Shown here: positions 5,410 to 45,784 of the stretch, piece by piece | Position numbering within the stretch: position 1 is the first letter of the stretch | Layout: each line of letters opens with the position of its first letter | DNA from: Octopus vulgaris | Lineage: Eukaryota | Length of the DNA: 64,000 nucleotides | Assembly (NCBI GenBank): GCA_951406725.2 | Contig: OX597818.1 | Span: 37,510,001 to 37,574,000 of the forward strand | Reading direction: 5' to 3' | The notes under the pieces: generated by a model | Database searches by the model: none | What the model was told of the DNA's origin: nothing | Seen by the model: only the letters and a program-made list of their open reading frames with translations | Program-made: the position numbers and the translations under genes

Positions 5410-6386
5410 AGAAATAGTTAGGGTTTCAGAAGAAATGTATAGAAGTATTTTTTTACGGCTCTTTACCTTCTGGTTTCCAATCCTGCCACGTCCAAATTTA
5501 CCTATCATTCCCTCAGGGACGACAAGATAAATTACTAGTCACGTACTGTTCTTGACTTAACCAATTAACCTCTAACGGCTCCCACCCCACATCGACCACA
5601 AGTTCAAATGGTACTTATTTTTGTCGACCCCTAAAGGATGAAAGACAAAGTCGACCACAACGGAATTTGATCTCAGAACACAAGGACGAAATACTGCTCA
5701 GCATTTTGCCCGAAATGATAACGATTCTGCCAGCACGCCGCCGACGCCAATGTTATATAATAATAATAACATTATACATTTAGTTATTTTGTGTAATTTC
5801 AACAACAAATAAATAATAAATAGAAAACAAATGTTTAACCTCCTCAGTGTATTGTACCGTATACCTTACACCTTTTCCTGTTTATAAATGAATTTGCTGC
5901 ATTTATCTCAATATATTTCGAAACCCCTTTGTGCGTTTTCATTGTGTAAATGCATGAATGGTCCGGATGGCAATAATATACTACTACTACTACTACTACT
6001 ACTACTAGTTTTATTGTTATTGCGTGCTTTCGCTGTTATTGATATTGCGTGCAATAACCAAGCTCAGCTCTGTAAGCCCTGTTTCTGTACAGGGCTATAT
6101 ATTTTTTTGTTCTAATACATTGAGATTACGTCATGCATGTGTAGTGTCTAGTATAGACATTTTCTGTGTTAATGAATACAAGTCCAGGCGTTTTCGTTAA
6201 ATATTTATCTGTGCCTTCTTTTTTATCGTTCCCGAGGCTCCTATTGCAATGGATGGGAAGGTGGGGGGTTGTATTTTTAATCCCTACATGCTGAATATTT
6301 CAATGACCAGGGCTTTTATATTAGGATAGTTTATGTATGAACGAATGATAATACATATACACACATGCGATCACTCACTGTATGTG

Positions 6387-6462
<76 letters not shown>

Positions 6463-6568
6463 TATAGTTAATCCAAACGTGAAAACACAAAGAGAAAACA
6501 CAACAACGCGAGGACGTGGAACAAGTATGGTGTTATTGGATGCTCAGGAAAGGAAAGAAAGGAGGAGG

Positions 6569-6603
6569 ATTTAACGTTTCGAGCGGAGCTCTTCGTCAGA
6601 AAC
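6569..6603 (-). ncRNA. Minimal type I hammerhead ribozyme motif (Penelope pseudo-LTR-like)
   Basis: Minus strand GUUU-CUGACGA-A-GAGC(UCC)GCUC-GAAA-CG-UU-AAAU: canonical core, 4-bp stem II, palindromic ACGU stem III, short stem I. Confidence 0.75.
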
Positions 6604-6773
6604 ATGGAAAAAGGAAAGGTCCAAGGAAGGGAAGACGTAGAAAGAAAATTACCAACGATACACACGCGGTCACATATTGAACTTATATATATGTAGTGTA
6701 GTAACTCTACTGAAAAGTAATGGTTGTTACCATCCCAACGTGGTTGTTCCGTACAGAACAATGTTTCTACTCC

Positions 6774-7083
6774 TTTTAACCCCAGGAGGACACCTCCTTC
6801 AGTTGAGTTACTATTTGCATCTCTTATAGAGATTTTAGAACTTTGCTTCTTGCAAGATTAGCGGCTGAATGTCGCTTATTTATACATTGCGAACTGGGAC
6901 GAACAACAGCTATGTGTAGCAGACGGGTGTACCAATACTGAGGAAAGGCAAGACCCTGAAACCAGTTGGTCTACTAGCCCTGTTACCGCTGGATGGGAGT
7001 TCTTCGTTCCCTTGTTTGCACTATAACGGACACGGATATCGTATCGTTAACCAGCTGGAGGAGGTGTCCTCCTAGGGTTAAAA
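6774..7083. mobile_element. 310-bp element with 32-bp terminal inverted repeats and an internal hammerhead
   Basis: 6774-6805 matches the reverse complement of 7052-7083 at 29/32 positions. Confidence 0.7.
6923..6983 (+). ncRNA. Type I hammerhead ribozyme motif with extended stem I
   Basis: CUGAGGA 6938-44, stem II AGG(CAAGAC)CCU, GAAA 6958-61, stem III ACCA(GU)UGGU, GUC triplet 6969-71. Stem I CCAAUA/UACUAG has two mismatches and extends via GGG/CCC across a UGUA bulge. Confidence 0.7.
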
Positions 7084-7114
7084 ATAAAATCAAAAACAGA
7101 ACACAAAGGATATC

Positions 7115-7205
7115 GCGGTACACGTGTTTCAAGCTTCATAAACGACCTGTTCTTACATCAGTGTATAATAGATATAAAAGATGGTTTAAAGCTCTCTTCA
7201 GCCGC
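7115..7205 (-). ncRNA. Type I hammerhead ribozyme with long stem II hairpin
   Basis: Minus strand GCGG-CUGAAGA-GAGCUU UAAAC...GUUUA UG AAGCUU-GAAA-CACGUG-UA-CCGC: perfect 4-bp GC stem I, GUA triplet, palindromic stem III, long paired stem II. Confidence 0.8.
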
Positions 7206-7302
7206 ATACATTGTTATTCCAAAGAGTTACATCACACTATAAAAAATATGAAAAGTACATGTAGTATTACCCATTATAATAGGTATATCATATCTCCTTG
7301 AG

Positions 7303-7421
7303 AAAGTGTATTTGTAAAATTTCGTAACTGTATAACTGTATAAAGGTTCATTGGATTTCGAAAATCTGTCCCTACTGTATCACCAGTCAACATATGTTAC
7401 GAAATTTTACAAATACACTTT
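7303..7421. repeat. Perfect 26-bp inverted repeat
   Basis: aaagtgtatttgtaaaatttcgtaac (7303-7328) and gttacgaaattttacaaatacacttt (7396-7421). Confidence 0.9.
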
Positions 7422-8159
7422 TTTAATTCGTTGTTAGTGTTTTTGTTTTTCTGTTGAGAAACGTCATTGACAAGGCCCAATGAGGCCGAAATGCATTACT
7501 ATCCCGCCCTTAATTCCCCACAATAAAAACGCATTCCCACCAAGCTCATACCCTCTTCACTGTATTTTTCTTCAACCACCTTTTTGTTGATTGACATCTA
7601 TGTTGAAACAAGATTTATTCTGTTGCCTGTCATACACCCTTCCACCAACCCTTCTTTTCCAATAGCCACTCGGAAAAAATTGATAAATTGTATTGTTTTA
7701 TCGATGCTCTGAATAAAAGATGGAATGCGATATTTATTAGATCCTTTTTGAAAAAAATAACATTAACTTCAAATATGGTGGGATGGATTGACAGAATCCT
7801 TATAGAGTCAGAAAAAAAAATGCCTTGCATTATTTGTTCCGAATTTTACATCCTCATTTCAAATCCCGTCGAAGTCAACTTTTTCTTCCATCGTTTCAGG
7901 GTTCAATCAAGTGCTGGGGTTGATGATAATCGACTTGCCTTCCCCCTCAAATTATAAGCCTTTTGCTTACATTTGAAACATAATCAATTTCATTTTTAAT
8001 TCGTTGTTGTTAGTGTTTTTGTTTTTCTGTTGAGAAACGTCATTGACAAGGCCTAATGAGGCCGAAATGCATTACTATCCCGCCCTTAATTTCCACTTTA
8101 AAAACGCATTCCCACCTGGCTCATATCCTCTTCACTCTATTTTTCTTCAACCATCTTTT
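7421..8159 (+). repeat. ~165-bp direct repeat pair (7421-7584 and 7993-8159), each with a variant hammerhead-like motif
   Basis: Near-identical copies; motif UUGACAA-GGCC...GGCC-GAAA-UGCA-UU at 7467-7497 and 8043-8073; an old SINE-A lies between them. Confidence 0.8.
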
Positions 8160-9125
8160 CTCATTCTTTCCTCTTGTTTTTATTTTTCTTTCTTATCAAA
8201 GATTAACGTCTGATACGTCAAAACTCCTTCCTTTTTAAGCGTTCAACTAATACATTACGAGTTTCATAACATCTTTGTTTAGAGAGTAACTATCGAGCTA
8301 AACCGAAAAGTAAACGGAAAATATTAATTAAATATGAGTAAATAATTATTCTTGTTTGACTCTGCTGAAACTATATCACTAATTAGACATGTATGAGTAA
8401 TAAGCATCTACATTATATCTATCATTGGAATATTTTGATTTTATTTTGTAAAATCTTACCGAAATTTACTGTAAAGCGTTCAGGATGCATTACGCCAATA
8501 TGCATAGTATGCCACAGATAGTTACAGCCGATAAAGCTCATAGATGCTAGCAGTTCCTGAATCAGTCACCCTAATTATTCTTGTCATGCTTACTATATCA
8601 CAAATGCCGCATCTTATCGTGATATTTCATGGTAATTTTAATTTTAAAACCGTCCTATTGAACCTAAGTCAGTATTGATTTTAAATTGCTATTAAACTTA
8701 ACAGAATAATTAGACAGAAACCATCTTGAGTTGTATATAATTGTATTAAGTGAGACAAAAAAAAAAAAACGAGAATTATAACAAACATTCTAGTCACAAT
8801 TCATGTTGGACCTCTGCATGTTGTGGTGGCGCTATTTTCAGTCTTTCAAAACAGTTTCTTGTCTTACAAAGATCAGTTTCAGAGTGCCAACTGCACCTTG
8901 CGTTTTGGATGACTTGAGGAATAATAAGAAAGATTCGATATTCTTTTACAAGCTTCAGTTATTGGACTGCGGCCATGTTGGAGCAGTTGAAGTGCTGCCT
9001 TGAAACTTGTCAATGATATCGAACAAGAACGTGTTTTGGTCTTGTACTTACGTTATCGTTGTTATTAATCAAACGCTAAGTAGGCGCGCGCGTGTATGTA
9101 TGCGTGTGTGTGTGTGTGTATGTGA

Positions 9126-9642: not shown

Positions 9643-11031
9643 CTGCTGAACGGTCTCTGTTTACCAAGATCTCTTCGCAAAATATAGGGTACGAAAAAGA
9701 AAAAGGCATCGGAGGGGCGATTTTTTCGCAAATTATAGTGTGACTTACAATGTGTTGCTTACCCAGGCATTTTAATTGAATTAAATTTTTCTTTTAAGTA
9801 TCACTATTATAGGTATTTATACTCCGATGAAATTAAGACATCAACTCGTAAATAAACGAAGCCCTCGAATCTATCACTGTACACACACACACATAGAGTC
9901 ACATATCTATGTATGTATTTATGTATGTGCCCGCACATGTCTACGCGCATAGGTACATCATGATCTATACACACGCAGACAAGGGTCGATTCATATGAAA
10001 AAGAAAGTGAAAATAATATGATCACTTGCTAAACGGAAAATCTGTAAGTTCGATTTTATTTTATTAAAAAAAAATTTTTTTTTAAAGATAATCAAACCAA
10101 ACGTTCATTATTTCGAGCCACTTACCCAATGAGTATTTCTGCCAAATGTGGCGAAAATCTGTTCAGCCGTTTTCCAGGGTTTTCGCAGGGTTTAAAAAAA
10201 GGCAAAAAGAAACAAAAAAAAATTGACACATATCACTGATAAATCATTAAAAGATTATAGCTGTTGGATAATTTCAACGTGTTCTAAAGCGTGAATTGAT
10301 AGAAATTATAGAGATCCCTTCGAAATTGGTTTTGTAGACTCTCTCATTATAGAGTTTTAAACCAACTTGTATTTCACACATCAGTCTTATACTAACCAAA
10401 ATGAACTGCTAGCCGAATGGTGCACGGTTCACATGTTGCTATGAGTAGTACATTTTGTTATAATAAATGCATATCTCGCTGAATCACGATTGTATAATAA
10501 ATGTATGCTTCATTGTTTTACAATGCTGATTTGGAGTACTCTGGTGGGTTTAGAGCCGCCATCAACGCCCAAGCAACTCAAGTGTATTCTCCTTGGTAGA
10601 TCCTTCGTCACTTTGAAAGTGCCAAAATTATTCCTGTCTCCACCATTTTGAACAATAACAATGATATTTATATCCCACTTGTTAAAATAAATCTTTAATT
10701 ATAATAGTAATAATAATGTGTTTAAGTGCAAGTTAGTTTTAAATAATAAATATCTACGATTAATTTGCTGTTCATCATTCCCCTTCTCCATCTCATCATC
10801 ATTGACAAAACCGAACATGGGCGAAATCACGTGATCTGGTGATCTCGACGCTGTAGGTAGTAGGGATTTATCTCCCCGCAAGTGATATCAAGAGGGCATT
10901 TTTCAGCTAACATGAGTGTTTCGCTCATGTTAACTACCGCAGTATAGTTCCTTCAAACAGAACATCTACATTTAAGTGAGGATAAATATTACCTTTCGGT
11001 ATTAATATTGCCTCTGTCGCTAATATATATT

Positions 11032-11420: not shown

Positions 11421-11917
11421 TTTTTAATAAAGAAGAAATTGCTTGATTAATGATCTTCAACGTAGATAACACAAGACCAATACACATGGTGTGAATGAGA
11501 GCAAACGATTAAATCATCTCCGTAATTGATTGGTACTTATCCAAAAGGATGAAAGGTAAACTGAACCCCAGCGGGAGTCGAACTCACAGTAAGAGTGACG
11601 CAACGAAATACCACAAGGCATTTTGGCCGATAATTCTTTCTACTAATTCTGCCACCAACTGCACTCAGTTTCGTTTGAACAATGACATCGATTACATATC
11701 AAGCATACTCGAGTTGAACAAGAATTAATTTGCTATCGTCAAAAGTAATCAATATGCAAGGTAATCATTTGCGAGTCGGAGCAGCCTCTACGCGGTCACT
11801 CGACCTGCTAGAGATATCAGCCGAACCTCCGTGATAGTTTTATCTGAATAATAAATGGGATGATGAACTCCTTTGATCATAGCTATGTTTGACCGAGACT
11901 GACCAGTGAATAATAAT

Positions 11918-14741
<2,824 letters not shown>

Positions 14742-16330: not shown

Positions 16331-16377
16331 CCGCACGCACGCAAGATTTAAGTACGAACTGGGTGGACTTTGTTTCA

Positions 16378-16412
16378 CTGATGAGACCTAATATGATCGA
16401 AACATGCATGTT
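16378..16412 (+). ncRNA. Degenerate minimal hammerhead motif
   Basis: CUGAUGA-GACC(UAAUAU)GAUC-GAAA-CAUGCAUG-UU; core and palindromic stem III are present, proximal stem I does not pair. Confidence 0.45.
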
Positions 16413-21429: not shown

Positions 21430-21441
21430 ATGTAATGGGAT

Positions 21442-21559
21442 GATTACAGCACCTAGGTTTCCCAAGCGGTCACCCATCTAAGTACTAACTAGGCTCGATG
21501 CTGCTTAACTTCGGTGATCGAACGAGAGCCGGTGCTTTCAACGTGATATGGCCCTAAAA
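21442..21559 (-). pseudogene. Solitary 5S rRNA copy, probably a pseudogene
   Basis: Minus strand GGCCATATCACGTTGAAAGCACCGGCTCTCGTTCGATCACCGAAGTTAAGCAGC...TTAGTACTTAGATGGGTGACCGCTTGGGAAACCTAGGTGCTGTAATC matches metazoan 5S, including the internal control region. The first six bases are degenerate and there is no downstream T-run terminator. Confidence 0.88.
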
Positions 21560-42789: not shown

Positions 42790-44160
42790 ATTATAATCTT
42801 TTATATTATAATCATATTTACAATTATTAAAGAATTTAATACTATTATTATATCCCGCCTCCCGCAAGGCTTCATTATAATAAGACGCGTGTTTTTGGAA
42901 AATCTCAAAATTAAAAGAAAGCATCGATATTCTTTTACCTATATTATGTATCAACGATTTTTTAATTGAGGGTAGGTGATTACTATTAGCATTAATATAT
43001 CTAAGGTTTTCATTAATTTTATGGAATGGTTGGGTTTTACCTGGTATTAAATTAAAATTAGCATCTAAATAATTAACATTATAGTTCTCTTTATATATAG
43101 TAATACCTAATCCATATCTTTAAAAAAAACTATATAGTTTATTCTTATATAATTCTAGTGTTTTATTGGTACAATTCTTAGTTATAATAAAAGGTCATCC
43201 CTATATAATCCACCCTCTAAATTTAATTTTTCTAATTGAAGTTGAGATAAATACCTACTAAATCTGTCACCTGGGCAGAATCGGATACCCCCATAGGTAT
43301 ATCAAAATAGTCTCTAGTATCTTTCCTAGCCCACAATTTATTATTATATCTAATCAACGATTTCTTAGCCGCTTTAACTACATTAAATTCATCATAAGTC
43401 ATTCCAACCTTATTTATTGCATAAATTAGGGCCTTATGGACTACAATCTCATTTATAGAAGAATAATAATTATCTATATCTATTTGAATGAATTTATATC
43501 TATTTTTATCTTTGGTATTATTAAACCATTTTAAAGTATCGTTAGTACTACTCCAAAGTTTTAGATAATTAAGTTCATTTAATCTATTAATATATTTATC
43601 TAAAATGATCTTAATTTACCTAGATCTGATTTACATGGACAAATAAGTCTAACTTTTGGATCAGAATAAAAATTATCCTTATGGTCTTTTAAAGTAATTC
43701 TAGGGTGCGTCGGTACATAAGGTTCAGTTTTATTGTCTAACTCATATTTTATCATGATTGATTTAGAGGCCTTATTTATATTATAAAGAGTATTTTCAGG
43801 AACAATTTTATATTTTTAATATATTCATTTCTCTAATAGATTATCATATAATTTAACATCTCTTTTATACAGGTTCCTAGTTTCGCATTTCTTTTATTCT
43901 AATAGCTAGATTTCTTAATGTGCCTCTTTGGGTATCTATGAAATTTAATATTTTTCACCACCTTCCAAATATCCTCTAAAACCTGTATTTCTCTATTATT
44001 CAGGGGTCCCTTTCTAGATTTAAGTTTAGTATTAATATAATTAGTACTCTCTACATTGTTAATATTAGATATGTTACAATTATTGTAGTAGGCTTTCCAT
44101 TTAATCCTATTAATACATTTTTTTACATTATTAATAAGTTTAAGATATTCCTATACCATC
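42790..44160 (-). pseudogene. Penelope-like element reverse transcriptase remnant
   Basis: LKWKAYY, KTRNLYK, ITLKDHKDNFYSDPKVRLICPCKSDLG, FIQIDIDNYYSSI, FDIPMG...DLVG, GLYRDD (YRDD at 43194-43205), YNEALREAGY; stops and frameshifts present. Confidence 0.88.
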
Positions 44161-45670: not shown

Positions 45671-45784
45671 GACATAAGTTCCTTGTCTTTCCTGATGAGA
45701 AGGCGGCATAATGCACTCCTTATTCCTTCGGAATTAGGAATATGCAGTCTTCGAAACATATGTCGAGAATAAAGGAATTTTGTT
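45671..45784 (+). ncRNA. Type I hammerhead ribozyme with extended stems I and II
   Basis: CUGAUGA 45692-98; stem II GAAGGC/GUCUUC extended by GCAUA/UAUGC and hairpin UCCUUAUUCC(UUC)GGAAUUAGGA; GAAA 45753-56; palindromic ACAUAUGU; GUC 45762-64; stem I UUUC/GAGA, 3x3 internal loop, then AAGUUCCUU/AAGGAAUUU. Confidence 0.88.

Follow-up and report, generated by a model that had tools for sequence, protein, structure and literature searches.

The stretch between positions 6467 and 8159 of the window, by which we mean the whole analysed piece of 64,000 nt of octopus DNA, consists of four unrelated repeats placed side by side (E1 to E4), each of which contains its own hammerhead motif. We consider it very probable that these repeats are truncated or non-autonomous elements of the Penelope-like (PLE) type which piled up on a shared AT-rich target and have no function as a unit; the stretch is most likely ordinary transposon debris and no working ribozyme switchboard. 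An earlier sequence-only reading had offered such a pile-up of hammerhead-bearing retroelements as one of two explanations, and it is supported by the depth differences between the four families, gradients of 5'-truncation, (TA)n ends of E1, E2 and E3 either here or elsewhere, and the inverted-plus-direct layout of E2 with its inverted junction. M2 has decayed, and M4 and M5 are devoid of helix I. The features are listed in Table 1.

Table 1. Repeats, hammerhead motifs and adjoining features of the cluster, in window coordinates.
Feature	Position	Strand	Description
(TA)n(TG)n microsatellite	6379-6466	.	3' end of E1 lies against it
E1	6467-6681	-	5'-truncated, very high-copy hammerhead-bearing repeat with depth gradient
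M1	6569-6603 (core 6573-6599)	-	minimal type I hammerhead, dimer type
Short (TA)n remnant	6683-6692		abuts outer end of the inverted piece of E2
E2 inverted piece	6699-6797	-	last ~100 nt (3' end) of the E2 unit
E2 direct copy	6798-7084	+	16-nt remnant of prior unit (6798-6813), then most of the E2 unit; cut by E3 at 7084
M2	6922-6984 (core 6938-6971)	+	decayed canonical-type I hammerhead (helix I bulged, helix II of 4 bp, helix III palindromic) capping a long rod (6880-7026)
E3	7083-7396	-	5'-truncated, middle-to-high-copy hammerhead-bearing repeat with T-rich 3' end
M3	7115-7205 (core 7119-7201)	-	type I hammerhead whose helix II arm is long; helix III small and palindromic
26-bp inverted copy of 7303-7328	7396-7421	+	adjoins E3 on its 5' side
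E4 copy a, with M4 (7467-7497)	7420-7584	+	depth near single-copy outside 7459-7520
Old fragment of the window's common short interspersed repeat	7818-7996	.	16 of 22 BLAST rows; depth peak 7831-7892
E4 copy b, with M5 (8043-8073)	7993-8159	+	92% identity to copy a

The anatomy of the stretch was derived from contigs of public runs placed on positions 6467-8300 at 80% likeness, which were obtained for 4 of 24 runs: X3, X4 and X8, which are DNA or unlabelled and carry three organism codes, and X15, which is guessed to be RNA. The summed contig depth splits the region into four repeat families spanning about four orders of magnitude. Divided by the single-copy background (6.7-13 in X3), the depth amounted to 2e4-1e5 for E1, 1e3-2e4 for E3, 4-20 for the hammerhead part of E2 and 1-14 for M4, ratios that serve as an order-of-magnitude guide and give no copy number. 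E1, E2 and E3 abut with gaps of at most 17 nt between neighbours, and the gap between E1 and E2 is the (TA)n remnant. Because a contig of X4 (7316-8229) covers the E3-E4 junction together with both copies of E4, this part is not an assembly artefact. A contig of X3 (6736-7110) spans E2-E3 by 26 letters, below the bar of 31 letters, and none of the contigs listed for X3, X4, X8 and X15 bridges E1-E2 or the whole stretch. Contigs of the families are also present in X15, with no joint among the rows listed and no locus-spanning contig; as assembled sequence they are silent on ends, strand and level and neither support nor oppose expression.

The repeats noticed from the letters alone proved to be real, both the inverted ones (6774-6814 with 7043-7083, 83% over 41 nt; 7303-7328 with 7396-7421, a perfect 26-bp pair) and the direct one (7420-7584 with 7993-8159, 92%). 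The inverted repeats are inverted pieces of E2 and E3 and no separate elements. The reported absence of coding sequence also held: within the span there is just a single stop-to-stop frame, of 107 aa (6978-7301), a further one of 116 aa was seen at 7607-7957, and a set of 150 PLE-like proteins matched the window at 42-43 kb only, with no RT plus GIY-YIG reading frame in the cluster. The assignment to four unrelated families was likewise confirmed, as only M4/M5 among the ten pairs of motif neighbourhoods exceeded the shuffle maximum.

All five hammerhead motifs described earlier were recovered at their positions and on their strands, M1 to M3 with full cores that beat the shuffles, whereas M4 and M5 stayed within the range of chance. 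Each motif has a Watson-Crick 3-8 pair, GAAA, a helix II and an NUH triplet (GUU, GUC, GUA, AUU and AUU for M1 to M5), and the palindrome is perfect in M1, M3, M4 and M5 and one letter off in M2, where the majority letter of the family restores it. M1 contains a C3-G8 core, an extra A, a 4-bp helix II, an ACGT palindrome replacing helix III and a helix I of 4 bp including one G-U. M2 has a full C3-G8 core and is unpaired at 3 of 7 positions of proximal helix I and 1 of 4 positions of helix II. M3, with a full C3-G8 core, an 8-bp helix II closing a 64-nt arm, a palindromic helix III and a helix I of 4-5 bp, is the best-formed motif of the five, and the mean pair probabilities predicted for its helices I and II are 0.87 and 0.86. 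M4 and M5 combine a U3-A8 core with helix II and the palindrome and contain no pairs of helix I; a type II or III arrangement supplying helix I to them was sought by eye and not found. Judged by helix I, M1 and M3 are type I hammerheads of the PLE type, and M2, M4 and M5 are remnants.

Motifs were scanned with a score of our own, using 40 dinucleotide shuffles of the 64-kb window as control. At a score of at least 9, the window contains four motifs (M1, M2, M3 and one at 45692) versus a shuffle mean of 0.025 (maximum 1), and M4 (6.5) and M5 (7.3) fall into the range reached by shuffles (mean 1.4 at scores of at least 6 and 0.7 at scores of at least 7). Pattern scans yielded 0 loci in metagenome contigs and 0 in viral contigs. 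The Rfam covariance models, which had been proposed as a check, returned no hammerhead match for the window at gathering score or for three sub-stretches at E up to 10, and the matches obtained were microsatellite or hairpin look-alikes of miRNA models, well under thresholds. According to the available sections of PMC4209133, published minimal hammerheads were detected by descriptors rather than by the Rfam hammerhead models. If 5-8 motifs are distributed uniformly over 64 kb, the probability of finding four independent ones within 1.5 kb is 0.0003-0.003, which is unusual for one window, chosen here after the fact; the higher motif counts include two decayed motifs seen by eye below the cut-off of the scan.

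Other hammerhead-like sequences occur elsewhere in the window. Yet another unrelated family is represented at 45692-45764 (+) by a well-formed hammerhead with a 54-nt helix II arm, a palindromic helix III and a fold z of -3.0. The decayed motif at 10803-10836 (+) has a U3-A8 core, a 7-bp helix I, a perfect palindrome and a broken helix II, and that at about 16377-16412 (+) has a C3-G8 core, no helix I and flanks resembling those of M4/M5, the alignment with M5 being marginal.

The depth of E1 in X3 was 5.6-6.8e5 and dropped to 4e4 towards 6681, and that of E3 decreased from its 7083 end to 7396 from 14,328 to 978 in X3 and from 829,619 to 53,020 in X8, with 37 and 135, respectively, past 7396. 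Both gradients were seen in all three DNA runs and are deepest at the end 3' of the hammerhead, which is the pattern of 5'-truncated retroelements. In other copies, (TA)n borders E1 (loose end at 6487 in X8) as well as E3 (loose end at 7082 in X8), and a joint of 6536 to 7083 in X4 and X8 places E1, a microsatellite and E3 next to each other at another locus. E1 likely represents the 3' terminus of a PLE family or of a non-autonomous derivative of one, and both E1 and E3 may well be catalogued in Repbase or Dfam already. The cores of M1 and M3 show no difference from their family majorities among the differences listed (best 40 of 152). Because the depth at 7396-7421 is near background, the second arm of the 26-bp pair would be a local fold-back at the 5' junction of E3, likely formed at insertion.

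In X8 (organism C) the depth of E3 over single copy is about 10 times that of X3 and X4, which suggests a lineage-specific expansion. A contig of X8 (6751-7084), likely the orthologue of E2, extends 35 letters beyond 7084 without a match to E3, and on this one contig E3 may be absent at that site in organism C.

The structure of E2 became apparent from two joints among the best 15 of 75; other inverted-junction joints mostly have sides of 20-25 letters at 80% likeness and are unreliable. One connects 6770 and 7084 on opposite strands (X8, shorter side 63 letters), and the other leads from 7084 to 6806 with 40 letters in between and a side of 37 in all three DNA runs (X3, X4, X8). These 40 letters resemble the reverse of 6741-6776 at about 27 of 31 positions aligned by eye. 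The two joints indicate that beyond 7084 the unit continues as the reverse complement of the left arm before the next unit begins, and therefore that the family unit is about 320-345 nt long (279 + 40 = 319 nt according to the head-to-tail joint; 345 nt from the window pieces) and occurs head to tail. The 16-nt end of the preceding unit is 15/16 identical to 6699-6714 reversed. E2 has a GC content of 0.44, and a 345-nt circle of the window pieces is predicted to fold at z -2.8, with 0 of 100 shuffles as stable. The 3' part is deeper than the interior, and the left arm reaches about 100-200 times single copy in X3.

Within 6885-7021, 11 positions carry another majority letter by depth in X3 (among the best 40 of 152 difference rows). 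Ten of these letters make or strengthen a pair (9 pairs) in helices I, II and III or the rod, none breaks a pair, and one falls outside the registers drawn. The two registers of the rod were drawn after the majority letters were known, and the energy control is independent of them: the majority letters take the folding energy from -47.0 to -65.2 kcal/mol, versus -44.1 +/- 4.0 kcal/mol for 2000 random sets of same-type changes, 0 of which were as low. Because the majority letters restore pairs missing here, the local M2 ribozyme has decayed. The helix I mismatch 6935/6974 has no majority-letter fix among the differences listed (best 40 of 152), and the forced hammerhead fold of M2 is predicted at +7.4 kcal/mol versus a free minimum of -21.9 kcal/mol. 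Judging from these sequence comparisons, the E2 family appears to have been shaped as an RNA with a hammerhead, of which the window holds a decayed copy.

The layout of E2, an inverted 3' piece followed by a partial tandem and a direct copy, corresponds by analogy to that of PLE insertions, and E2 is probably a retrozyme family with PLE insertion anatomy. Its unit of about 320-345 nt is similar in size to animal non-LTR retrozymes (350-390 nt in mussel, available text of PMC7229834, Cervera and de la Pena 2020), and E2 fits the retrozyme description of a self-paired 170-400-nt unit with a GC content under 45% and a canonical type I hammerhead. The head-to-tail joint in other copies is also retrozyme-like. 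The tandem at the locus contains one hammerhead, and no contig with two hammerheads is among those listed for X3, X4 and X8. With a single hammerhead here, which is decayed, E2 lies outside the two-unit definition of an active retrozyme given in the accessible portion of a preprint (bioRxiv 10.64898/2026.07.22.740005). The inverted 3' piece is a trait of PLE insertions and is not described for retrozymes in the available parts of PMC7229834 and of that preprint.

The two copies of E4 diverged unevenly: their first 96 nt, which bear the motif, show 1 difference and a 3-nt indel, compared with 8 differences in their last 68 nt (post hoc contrast, p = 0.004). Neutral decay by itself is no explanation of this pattern; gene conversion would explain it, and constraint on the motif-bearing halves is possible. 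Since helix I is missing alike in M4 and M5, either E4 was duplicated after decay or it belongs to an old family with an unusual fold. The sequence between the copies is single-copy apart from the short-repeat fragment, and the 165-bp repeat may be a pair of pLTRs or may have arisen by local duplication at a later time. Because E4 is nearly single-copy, it is the motif that connects it to PLEs. The M4/M5 pair was found in runs labelled as three organisms.

A broken reverse transcriptase of the Penelope type is located 35 kb from the cluster at 42832-43884 (-), in three pieces that lie in different frames and contain stops. It matched protein P0121 at E 7e-62, and a HMMER search yielded 1181 proteins at E up to 0.001; a word-index protein search gave no match and Pfam no relevant family. 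Pfam recognised weak, sub-threshold RT or GIY-YIG domains in three of eight long relatives, and six of the eight examined contain CxCX5C, most of them also DKT and RW[KR]. The available sections of PMC8557442 name a CxCX5C linker, DKT and RW[KR] as marks of Hydra PLEs, which carry hammerheads and insert into (TA)n. By the likeness of these motifs, the remnant shows that such Hydra-type elements were probably once present in the genome. BLAST within the window revealed no sequence link of its flanks to E1-E4.

Several of these traits are in print, namely PLE hammerheads, the link between retrozymes and PLEs, the U3-A8 core and pairs lying close together on opposite strands. The accessible text of PMC4209133 (Cervera and de la Pena 2014) describes U3-A8 cores in PLE hammerheads as well as pairs located 100-700 bp from each other on opposite strands. 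PLE insertions comprise inverted 5'-truncated copies and partial tandems (PMC8557442, Craig et al. 2021), a layout also found in PMC8969392, and PLE cleavage is AT-rich, within the element's own pLTR or elsewhere (PMC11167929, Frangieh et al. 2024). The preprint mentioned above (Li, Clavereau and Pollet 2026) describes, in its available part, retrozymes as non-autonomous PLEs from 31 vertebrates, 3 insects and 1 coral, with no mollusc. From the accessible part of PMC6962438 we know of 235 Rfam hammerhead matches in the giant squid. No paper on octopus hammerhead elements was found in the literature searched, which lay mostly outside subscription journals and excluded Repbase and Dfam.

The minimal PLE hammerheads in the available text of PMC4209133 resemble M1-M5 in their type I topology, short helix I and palindromic or absent helix III, M1 in the extra nucleotide before helix II, and M4 and M5 in the U3-A8 core; as at our locus, they are mostly solo motifs of truncated copies, with nearby opposite-strand pairs. 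Unlike those in that text, the locus joins four unrelated families in 1.5 kb with no parent ORF attached, M3 has a 64-nt helix II arm, and M4 and M5 are devoid of any helix I. The PLEs of the Hydra clade (PMC8557442, PMC11167929) share with the locus the 5'-truncation, the partial tandem, the inverted 5'-truncated copy, the hammerhead near the 3' end and the (TA)n or AT-rich targets, and the remnant of an RT whose relatives are Hydra-type lies in the window; the cluster differs from them by its lack of an ORF and of any sequence tie between the RT remnant and E1-E4.

In the preferred reading, each element would have been copied by a PLE reverse transcriptase with GIY-YIG endonuclease acting in trans. 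The enzyme would nick AT-rich DNA and copy from the 3' part of the RNA, so that truncated copies would nearly always retain the hammerhead, and the hammerheads of the source elements would cut a tandem precursor RNA, mostly as dimers. The elements would have inserted one after another at one AT-rich site, E3 likely later than E2 because it cuts off the 3' end of E2 at an A-rich TTAAAA site, and the copies would have drifted neutrally afterwards. A (TA)n or AT-rich target is seen for E1 and E2 at the locus and for E1 and E3 in other copies. Against this pile-up stand the lack of an autonomous partner tied to any of the four families, the fact that no target-site duplications were identified at the locus, the missing matches of the Rfam hammerhead models, and E4, which is nearly single-copy and whose copies diverged in a way that goes beyond neutral decay alone.

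The same elements may also have come together by pure chance, if hammerhead repeats are common in the genome and share no target preference, an explanation that differs from the pile-up solely in the cause of the clustering and which we regard as improbable. The further strong hammerhead and two decayed ones in the window are in line with it, and at the P calculated above for each window, tens of thousands of windows would be expected to contain some tens of clusters. However, E1, E2 and E3 abut, the gap between E1 and E2 is (TA)n, and E1 and E3 are also neighbours elsewhere, separated by a microsatellite. We had initially read E2 as a TTAA-flanked, piggyBac-like MITE, and dropped this reading because the family sequence runs beyond TTAA. 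In its wider form, with E2 as such a MITE or a foldback derivative of a DNA transposon which captured a hammerhead fragment, and with the 26-bp pair as a second MITE, we consider it very improbable. The arms of E2 do read TTAA-CCC ... GGG-TTAA, and the depth of the arm segment far exceeds that of the interior. In X3, 62 loose ends show that many copies of the arm have another sequence inward of 7048, variable interiors behind the arms being a trait of MITE families. Nevertheless, other copies continue past TTAA on both arms (joint with the 63-letter side; 40-letter joint), the head-to-tail joint occurs in every DNA run, and the interior shows family-wide pairing of hammerhead and rod. The depth near background past 7396 shows that the second 26-bp arm is no family feature, for which reason the second MITE was rejected.

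The other explanation of the sequence-only reading was a composite locus that cuts transcripts of either strand, and as a selected locus whose ribozymes would process read-through transcripts we find it extremely improbable. M1 and M3, both on the minus strand, have cores that agree with their majorities among the differences listed (best 40 of 152), the fold prediction gives M3 both helix I and helix II, the M4/M5 pair is shared by runs labelled as three organisms, and the two E4 copies resemble each other more closely in their hammerhead-bearing halves than elsewhere. Yet the motifs themselves lend cutting on both strands no support, since all three plus-strand motifs are defective: M2 lost pairs of its family and has the unfavourable forced fold given above, and M4 and M5 lack helix I. 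The short palindromic helix III of M1 and M3 belongs to a type reported to depend on a partner of the same family (available parts of PMC4209133), which is absent at the locus, and because the palindromes of the two motifs differ, we infer that they form no dimer with each other. The same parts of that paper report that single minimal PLE hammerheads gave no cleavage, and in the available part of the preprint (bioRxiv 10.64898/2026.07.22.740005) 8 of 9 tested genomic retrozyme dimers remained uncleaved. The contig of X8 without E3 past 7084 is a weak hint that the block is unfixed.

By itself, the locus is of minor importance as a local example of PLE fragments seeding animal genomes with hammerhead motifs, and it cautions that ribozyme cores can cluster on both strands without selection. 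The part most worth following is E2. It is conceivable, though we consider it rather unlikely, that E2 represents an undescribed invertebrate, probably cephalopod, retrozyme family that bears the insertion signature of Penelope enzymes in its inverted 3' piece, partial tandem and (TA)n target, and that unrelated hammerhead families home into one another's AT-rich ends and so build ribozyme islands. If so, the anatomy of the locus would be evidence for PLE enzymes as the movers of animal retrozymes, a view that has so far been based on co-occurrence and terminal homology in vertebrates. If the E2 family were a circRNA-forming retrozyme with PLE-type inverted junctions, it would allow a direct test of the mobilising enzyme in a lineage unsampled by the papers found.

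Microsatellites and short repeats abound in the animal DNA of the window, whose common short repeat resembles an octopus SINE. A long open frame of a non-LTR reverse transcriptase with a C-terminal zinc-binding region extends over 11910-14732 (+) between (TAA)n-type and (CAT)n repeats; it shares 64% identity with its best relative, and a search with its ORF (11955-14570) gave mostly unnamed proteins, the named homologues being from arthropods only (34-51% identity). This element resembles the R4/Dong type. A solitary 5S rRNA-like sequence (93.6 bits) is located at 21441-21559 (-).
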